A DNA stretch of 63,003 nt, filler included, from Collodictyon triciliatum (taxonomy: Eukaryota): NCBI GenBank assembly GCA_043381765.1. It is 11 parts of 11 records of this genome, joined end to end, with 100 filler letters (N's around TTAATTAATTAA, not from the genome) between each part and the next. Parts side by side here need not be neighbours in the genome. Positions count along the whole stretch, not along the records: positions 41,674 to 47,521 come from JBHJMP010004894.1; 10 more parts are not named here. The stretch is one strand, 5' to 3'. The notes beneath the pieces were generated by a model. That model did not search any database. It saw only the letters and a list, made by a program, of their open reading frames with translations, and had not been told where the DNA came from. Of this stretch, positions 43,670 to 44,257 are shown in pieces; within the stretch, counting starts at the first letter, position 1; each line of letters starts with the position of its first letter. The position numbers were made by a program, and so were the translations under genes.

Positions 43670-44139
43670 TTACGCTGTGATCGATAGTGTTATGATGTAC
43701 CTCTTCATGATTTTTTTTTTTTACGCAATATATATTGTAAATAGGCGTTGCGCCCAGCTGTCATATTACGACAGCATTGCCCCAGTGATGTTTCTTTCAT
43801 TGTGCTTGTCACAATCGAGGCTGATGGTGCGCAATTCGGAAGAGTGAAATGTGTTAGGAGAAATAGTATATGGCAGCTGCTAACTGCTTTTATGTATACA
43901 AAGGACAGGAAACAAGCCATTGTTATTCTTCACACAATATGGGTGTCATTATTCAGTATTTGACATTTTCTACCTTTTTTTCTTTTTTTTTTTACGGCGC
44001 CGATAAGAATTAGGGAAACGAGCCTTTCATATTTCCTTCAAAAAACAAAACTTCACGGAACTTTACTGGAATAAGTATGCTTAATCTTGATTCAGGCCAT
44101 TCCCCAAGCGACCGAACTGCCGTCACCTTATATACCCAA

Positions 44140-44257
44140 CTAGAAGGAGTATACCATCTTTCGATTGGTTAACCTGGTGCGTTAGTATCCAAGGTCTCAT
44201 CACTTTTTTCACAAAGGTCATGTAGTGGTGAAGGCTACCAGGAAAGACCTAACAGCC
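44140..44257 (-). ncRNA. Candidate Fanzor omegaRNA scaffold, copy C
   Basis: Minus strand GGCUGUUAGG-UCUUU-CCUGGUAGCC 10-bp stem; CUUGG..CCAGG stem; ACC(A)AUC-GAAA-GAUGGU hairpin; ends UUCUAG. Confidence 0.7.

Follow-up and report, generated by a model that had tools for sequence, protein, structure and literature searches.

A right-end block in a dead, multi-copy Fanzor1 transposon of Collodictyon triciliatum as a plausible relic of an omegaRNA template

The window analysed here, a stretch of 63,003 nt joined from parts of the Collodictyon triciliatum genome (GCA_043381765.1), carries copies of a dispersed repeat, named A, B and C, all read on the minus strand. In copy C, the 5′ part of the element, identified by homology with copy A and including a CT/AG microsatellite, lies at 46148–47027 and is followed by a Fanzor1 pseudogene (44274–46147), a run of 16 adenines (44258–44273) and a right-end block of 118 nt (44140–44257), delimited by alignment with copy B and considered here as a candidate guide-RNA scaffold. 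The block ends in CTAG (44140–44143), followed by a T in both aligned copies, and the 20 nt beyond it (44120–44139), of which this T is the first base, had been proposed as a guide in an earlier interpretation of the locus (hereafter the sequence-only reading). Copy B is organised likewise: a pseudogene (34208–35626) which ends at an N run, an interrupted counterpart of the A-run (34206–34216, 11 nt), a right-end block of 119 nt (34087–34205) and a flank read from the sequence (34067–34086), the second guide proposed earlier. Copy A (4659–5643, by homology with C) consists of the 5′ part only; positions 4659–5634 are 80% alike to 46060–46975 of C, and its 3′ part is lost in an N gap (4274–4658).

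Several features surround these copies. Copy C lies in the upstream region of an intact radical-SAM ORF (308 aa, 42743–43669, minus strand; Pfam E = 1e-19), which has the same orientation and starts ~470 nt downstream of the element's end. Among the window ORFs, those scanned (10 of 42) encode LRR proteins, a PP2C phosphatase, a radical-SAM protein, an ABC-G transporter and a Myb/SANT protein. Long single-exon ORFs of this kind are found at 13155–16957, 19696–21624, 26239–27051 and 50608–53465 (LRR proteins, Myb/SANT-MADF, PP2C phosphatase and ABC-G type transporter) and represent a eukaryotic nuclear genome context. Overlapping open frames of 558–621 aa on both strands at 9841–11706 (58% GC) probably reflect low-complexity or repetitive DNA; Pfam gave no match for the 621-aa frame. 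The CT/AG-rich microsatellite in the 5′ part of the element (46898–47235 in C, 5560–5630 in A) has expanded to different lengths, and similar AG-rich arrays are present elsewhere, for example near 11920, 22950, 30630, 41370 and 53570. Paired runs of 44 N recur every ~5950 nt from 5865 to 59509 and look like masking rather than assembly gaps; one of them cuts copy B at 35628. Longer N gaps occupy 4274–4658, 40163–40682 and 48452–48943.

Copies C (44139–45684) and B (34086–35626) are 86.3% alike over 1559 nt on the minus strand, as judged by self-BLAST and MAFFT alignment. This likeness stops just after CTAG(T), at 44140 in C and 34087 in B, and the flanks beyond CTAG agree at 15 of 60 positions in an ungapped comparison, as expected at random. 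The right-end blocks themselves are identical at 100 of 118 positions (84.7%), with one gap. The sequence-only reading had placed the block at the same positions in both copies, with an abrupt end, and the similarity does end at CTAG; both guide strings had also been read correctly off the minus strand. These two tails (B and C) are the tail copies of the window, where no third one was found. A terminal 16-mer at 2649–2664 (3 mismatches) was rejected as a tail copy, since it shows no further similarity.

The boundary was also visible in contigs from sequencing runs, of which 13 are listed for the stretch, each with a share of at most 0.08 and none recorded as RNA. In four runs, two of them labelled freshwater metagenomes, 506, 513, 184 and 95 contigs match 44128–46900 at a likeness of at least 80%, in contig data that skip 44256–44284 as repeat. 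Contig depth in the four runs is zero in the outward bin 44021–44127 and low in the bin 43914–44020, which coincides with a T-run. No peaks of contig starts or ends appeared, and none of 40 variant rows, out of 973, falls in the tail. Contig coverage in four runs together with zero depth outside indicates a multi-copy family with CTAG as its outer boundary. The sharp stop at CTAG is an element boundary at the DNA level, and it is in this form that the arrangement typical of omegaRNA loci, a scaffold ending at the right end with copy-specific sequence beyond, was found here.

The gene adjoining the block is recognisably Fanzor1. Its largest open piece in C (45319–45954, 211 aa) matches, among solved structures in PDB, GtFz1 of Guillardia theta (E = 1e-5) and SpuFz1 of Spizellomyces punctatus (E = 1.6e-3), and an exhaustive HMMER search with the Fanzor piece gave 389 matches at E ≤ 1e-3, including full-length proteins of ~600–700 aa. 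The closest full-length match to the C piece, P0005 (634 aa), is 37% identical to it, while closer matches (79%, 74% and 52% identity) are short fragments. P0005 itself matches SpuFz1 over residues 14–607 (E = 9e-37), and its tblastn alignment to C and B is colinear, without any indication of introns. The RuvC-I aspartate (GxDxGK), the glutamate in EFRTS, a zinc-finger CxxC and RD.NSA can be recognised in the gene of C and B, in line with the Fanzor signature given in the available text of PMC3627910. A Fanzor/TnpB gene with the RuvC D-E-D residues and a zinc finger thus adjoins the block, as a pseudogene in both copies. Pfam searches with seven ORF pieces returned nothing meaningful, and word-indexed protein searches gave no match in the ‘longer’ class for the N-terminal piece and none in the ‘near’ class for the C-terminal piece. 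No close intact homologue of the window Fanzor was present in the protein collections searched.

Both Fanzor1 genes are dead, with 5–6 in-frame stops and at least 3 frameshifts each. Colinear tblastn of P0005 revealed six in-frame stops and three frame changes in C, and tblastn showed five stops and three frame changes in B; the in-frame lesions of the two copies have none in common. Searches for further copies were negative. A protein-pattern scan of metagenome contigs yielded 112 pattern matches, none of them confirmed, and a two-block DNA pattern of the tail had no match in the same type of contigs. A 20-mer of the ORF end was absent from prokaryote-genome contigs and from viral contigs, the 211-aa piece found nothing in viral contigs, and a search with P0003 of viral and prokaryote-genome contigs gave no confirmed match. 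Two matches of a 17-mer in viral contigs were rejected as chance, with no similarity beyond 27–38 nt, and an alignment of 17 proteins was too diverse to be used as a search query.

One could expect the block, as a functional RNA, to be better kept than the decaying remainder of the element. Instead, while the tail is identical in B and C at 100 of 118 positions, the other aligned positions are identical at 1236 of 1398 (88.4%; Fisher p = 0.24), a weak test in that it compares two fossil copies and leaves the active lineage outside. Substitutions between B and C in the gene are spread over codon positions 1, 2 and 3 as 58, 49 and 55 (chi-square p = 0.69). The even distribution over codon positions, with a tail no better kept than the remainder, points to neutral drift of B and C since their creation. 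Non-coding conservation above the neutral level, as expected of an omegaRNA, was accordingly not observed. As judged from these alignments, B and C are two independently decayed copies whose tails are alike by descent, with no sign of selection. The sequence-only reading had called the block conserved and had named conservation no higher than the neutral divergence of the element as an outcome that would speak against a guide RNA; this outcome is the one obtained, and what stands of ‘conserved’ is that two copies of a repeat are alike, the tail at 84.7% and the remainder of the element at 88.4%. The practical lesson for scanning is that a dispersed repeat cannot be called conserved because two of its copies are alike.

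Three stems on the minus strand had been proposed for the block. Stem 1 (44233–44257) forms 10 pairs in C; in B, two of them are broken and two carry one-sided changes, where a single such change had been listed. Stem 2 (44173–44193) is present with its 5 bp and shows one one-sided change between B and C. Stem 3, a subterminal hairpin with a GAAA loop located 10 nt before CTAG (44154–44168; B homologue 34101–34116), had been given as a ‘consensus’ which is intact in neither copy: C is bulged, lacking one U, and B has A for C. Taken together, the 21 proposed pairs comprise, between B and C (n = 2, hence minimal power), no compensatory change, three one-sided changes, three broken pairs and one gapped pair.

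Thermodynamic folding of tail plus guide gave –38.4 kcal/mol for C (z = –1.81; 11 of 200 shuffles as good) and –26.7 kcal/mol for B (z = –0.41; 63 of 200), so that neither energy stands out from chance. The two copies are predicted to fold differently. Stem 1 has a pairing probability of 0.99 in C and 0.01 in B, and the terminal hairpin of 0.85 and 0.04, respectively; for stem 2, only 2–3 pairs are probable in C, with values of ~0.1 in B. RNAalifold on B and C favoured another, long-range helix of 17 pairs, three with one-sided changes and none broken, which was optimised on these same two sequences and reaches a probability of 0.7 in B and 0.0 in C. The covariation analysis suggested by the sequence-only reading, carried out on B and C only (n = 2), thus shows no compensatory pair. 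No common RNA fold is supported for B and C by these predictions, and two sequences cannot decide a structure.

A first stem-loop of 7 bp is described for three solved Fz1 complexes in the available part of PMC11423790. The candidates for this stem-loop (SL1) are the 10-bp stem, intact in C only, and the 5-bp stem. An Rfam scan of 43800–47000 at E ≤ 10 gave only weak, irrelevant matches (DLEU2_4 and DdR1), ARAGORN found no tRNA-like gene, and a consensus scan detected a single promoter-like match, where shuffled sequence gives more, and nothing resembling a terminator.

Part of the block may have had another origin. The sequence-only reading had taken it as non-coding, which is doubtful for the first ~40 nt. 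In the tail of B, the ORF frame resumes after one TAG and continues for 19 more codons containing T-F-T-T-T. In C, a probable relic of the Fanzor C-terminal extension lies at 44218–44256 (minus strand), its frame ending at TGA (44218–44220), out of register with the ORF because the A-run differs in length from that of B. A related motif, [ST]-F-[TS]-[TS], occurs 7–11 residues after RP..F in the closest relatives (P0011, P0023, L003, L004 and L007), and a short nucleotide motif coding for T-F-T is common to viral relatives and the window; a loose version of the C-terminal motif was found in 13 of 50 C-termini and so is not family-wide. We read the initial ~40 nt of the tail, stem 1 among them, as probable former C-terminal coding sequence, with moderate confidence and on the strength of a short motif and an open stretch of 19 codons. 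The ~75 nt that remain would be genuine 3′ UTR, as long as the scaffold region of SpuFz1.

Intact Fanzor1 genes resembling P0005 were found in giant-virus contigs: L003 (88%), L004, L005 and L006 (80%, with identical flanks) and L007 (49%). Similarity between L003 and L004 ends 46 nt beyond the stop codon; upstream of the gene the two are syntenic, which hides the left boundary. Together with these 46 nt, the final ~130 nt of the ORF (L003:4776–4951 and L004:4776–4951) form a predicted structure with 51 consensus pairs, three of them compensatory and none broken (–62 kcal/mol), and L007 has a 7-bp hairpin of different sequence at the corresponding place. An RNA structure overlapping the ORF end in the P0005 Fanzor1 clade is well supported by this modelling, which makes the ORF end plus 46 nt of L003 and L004 a strong omegaRNA candidate. 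A covariance model built from these two sequences (R1) had no match in the window, and the positive control L007, 49% identical at the protein level, reached only E = 4.5, so that the lack of a window match carries little weight. These viral genes are the closest full-length relatives of the window gene (37% to the C piece) and share with it the RP..F and [ST]-F-T motifs and the T-F-T nucleotide motif. They differ in that their ORFs are intact and their conserved 3′ block reaches 46 nt past the stop, ends without CTAG and contains the three compensatory pairs.

The termini of the element were compared with those of rolling-circle transposons. In the available text of PMC3627910, Helitrons start with 5′-TC and carry one subterminal 3′ hairpin, those of the Helitron1 type ending in CTRR-3′, whereas Helitron2 has asymmetric terminal inverted repeats (ATIRs) and a 5′ hairpin; insertion occurs between AT or TT according to the accessible part of PMC10288648. 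At the 3′ end of both B and C, a hairpin is followed by 10 nt, CTAG and then T, so that a CTRR terminus is present in 2 of 2 copies. The hairpin of B has a 5-bp stem and a 6-nt loop 10 nt before CTAG, and that of C has 5 bp with one bulge. In Helitrons, the 3′ hairpin lies about 10–12 nt from the end, and insertion leaves no target-site duplication. The one subterminal 3′ hairpin found here is a weak signal, since a hairpin of at least 5 bp this near the end arises in 414 of 5000 shuffles (~8%).

At the other end, the homology of A and C stops near 47026–27 at a block starting with TC, preceded by T and located after a T-rich sequence in both copies; this boundary, hence the TC start and the T|T target, is uncertain, resting on two copies in a T-rich context. 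Each end of the element is seen in two copies, and in no copy can both be read clear of low-complexity sequence. Terminal inverted repeats were not detected beyond low-complexity pairs. The ATIRs of Helitron2 were absent too, the 5′ terminus having no convincing inverted counterpart just upstream of the 3′ hairpin, nor was a 5′ hairpin of the Helitron2 type seen in the 5′ region, a CT-rich repeat without palindrome. None of the 10 ORFs scanned among the 42 of at least 170 aa in the window encodes RepHel. These features make Helitron-like termini suggestive, not proven. The A16 run raised the question whether the tail had been retroposed or was SINE-like; this was rejected, as the run is internal, with both sides common to B and C.

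Fanzor omegaRNAs originate between the 3′ end of the ORF and the right end of the element, or overlap these ends, as described in the available text of PMC10432273, PMC11423790 and PMC10530073. Those of Fz1 measure 75–150 nt (in the accessible part of PMC11423790) and extend 14–21 nt into the flank (PMC10432273, PMC11423790 and PMC10530073, same parts), the SpuFz1 scaffold of 75 nt being joined to a guide of 14–15 nt (Saito et al. 2023, PMC10432273, in the available text). The block studied here lies at the site where Fanzor1 elements normally encode their guide RNA and, by this analogy, may plausibly be what is left of an omegaRNA template. We consider it probable that the block forms the right end of a dead transposon, multi-copy and non-autonomous, with Fanzor1 as its only gene, and that it is by analogy the relic of an omegaRNA template. 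The proposal that it is a guide scaffold is thus retained as far as position and boundary fit Fanzor1 loci, while conservation, covariation, the predicted folds and the state of the two adjacent genes, both pseudogenes, lend it no support.

In an active family, by analogy with SpuFz1, GtFz1 and the Helitron2-borne CrFNuc-1, a transcript would be cut into an omegaRNA whose scaffold would span the 3′ end of the ORF and the tail, with a guide of 15–20 nt read through into the flank. Guided by this RNA, Fanzor would cut the empty target site. A second use of the terminal hairpin with CTAG would most likely be to signal termination to a Helitron-type (HUH) transposase supplied in trans. Loci B and C themselves preserve a fossil of this system, with broken nuclease genes and, in each copy, lesions in the proposed stems.

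A narrower view would reduce the block to a cis-acting transposon end plus 3′ UTR or ex-coding filler, with no guide-RNA role in the family. The CTAG terminus, the hairpin 10 nt upstream, the T after the end and the TC start do fit the Helitron rules as given in the available text of PMC3627910 and PMC10288648, and the upstream ~85 nt show no structural signal; moreover, no cleavage was seen with CrFNuc-1, the only Fanzor1 of a Helitron to have been tested, in the experiments covered by the accessible part of PMC10530073. However, the Helitron signal is itself weak, given the frequency of near-end hairpins among shuffles, and the ancestral sequence of the window Fanzor retains the D, E and RD motifs. 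The intact viral relatives have compensatory pairs in the homologous region, and the Fanzor and TnpB proteins tested biochemically all bind RNA from the 3′ end, as far as the available text of PMC10432273, PMC10530073 and PMC11423790 goes. On this balance, we regard the purely cis-acting block as rather unlikely.

The stronger sense of the sequence-only reading, in which B and C are working omegaRNA genes whose transcripts, cut to scaffold and guide, are loaded in trans by Fanzor1 from intact copies elsewhere, appears quite improbable. In its favour, four runs show the family in multiple copies, some of which may be intact; both stem 1 and the terminal hairpin are still predicted for C; and guide-only ‘ghost’ or extra fRNA copies are reported for S. 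punctatus and C. reinhardtii (available parts of PMC10432273 and PMC10530073). Against this, the ORF decays neutrally and the tail is no better kept, both copies are lesioned in the proposed stems, the predicted folds disagree, and protein collections hold no close intact homologue, the best full-length one being 37% identical and nearer ones short fragments. Chance similarity or an assembly artefact, which the many N runs and gaps of the window might evoke, is a negligible explanation in view of the colinear similarity over 1559 nt and of the contigs of four independent runs, in which this repeat recurs with an identical outer boundary.

Returning to the relic of an omegaRNA template in a dead Fanzor1 transposon, a bolder and improbable extension would be that intact members persist and make an omegaRNA of ~135 nt from the Fanzor1 C-terminal coding sequence onwards, the guide-proximal stem being the Helitron terminator and the T-rich target the TAM. 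The left-end flanks available for such a motif, those of C and A (n = 2), are both T-rich, with an uncertain boundary. If this were true, one DNA end would serve two machines, in a eukaryotic rolling-circle counterpart of IS200/IS605–TnpB homing. In this reading, the residence of the closest intact relatives in giant viruses hints at exchange between virus and host.

Among known systems, SpuFz1 of Spizellomyces punctatus shares with the window element a non-autonomous Fanzor1 transposon with a single gene, a candidate scaffold of ~75–120 nt between ORF end and right end, and copy-specific sequence right beyond the element end as putative guide; P0005, the relative of the window gene, matches SpuFz1. 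Unlike here, where none were found, SpuFz1 elements have terminal inverted repeats, and their RNA was seen by small-RNA-seq and RNP pull-down, as reported in the accessible text on that system, whereas the genes of the window copies are dead.

The closest precedent for the carrier is CrFNuc-1, located on the Helitron2 elements CRe-1, 2 and 3 (Bao and Jurka 2013, PMC3627910; Jiang et al. 2023, PMC10530073; both as far as available). According to these texts, the CRe elements, like the window element, are non-autonomous carriers of rolling-circle type without TIRs, with a subterminal 3′ hairpin, insertion after a T-rich sequence and before T, and a guide-RNA candidate in the 3′ UTR at the element end. 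In Chlamydomonas, the CrFNuc-1 fRNA comes from the 3′ end of the Helitron2 element, small RNAs mapping to the 3′ UTR, and the protein depends on that RNA for its stability, cleavage being undetected in the work described there (available part of PMC10530073). The differences, within the same sources, concern the genes, of 5–10 exons in CRe while the window gene is colinear with an intronless relative; the termini, since the ATIRs and 5′ hairpin of CRe Helitron2 are absent here and the window end is a Helitron1-style CTAG; and the RNA, seen for CrFNuc-1 by small-RNA-seq and in an RNP stable only with it. Fanzor1 on Helitron2 with a 3′ guide RNA has thus already been published for Chlamydomonas, and the window adds a family member but no new principle. 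The family may even be included in the supplementary Fanzor locus lists of PMC10432273 and PMC10530073.

In TnpB elements, the right-end structure serves both transposition and the guide RNA. The TnpB omegaRNA (reRNA) of IS200/IS605 resembles the proposed arrangement in being templated by the right end of an element mobilised by an HUH transposase, with a scaffold overlapping the 3′ end of the nuclease ORF and the guide in the flank (PMC10432273 and PMC10530073, in the parts available). It differs in being prokaryotic, with TnpA in cis and a TAM identical to the transposon target motif, while the window element has no transposase and offers only two 5′ flanks. If active relatives of the window family exist, they would represent the second natural Fanzor1 on a rolling-circle element after CrFNuc-1, and could shed light on the need of a copy-and-paste transposon for a homing nuclease and on whether one terminal hairpin serves transposase and guide RNA alike.
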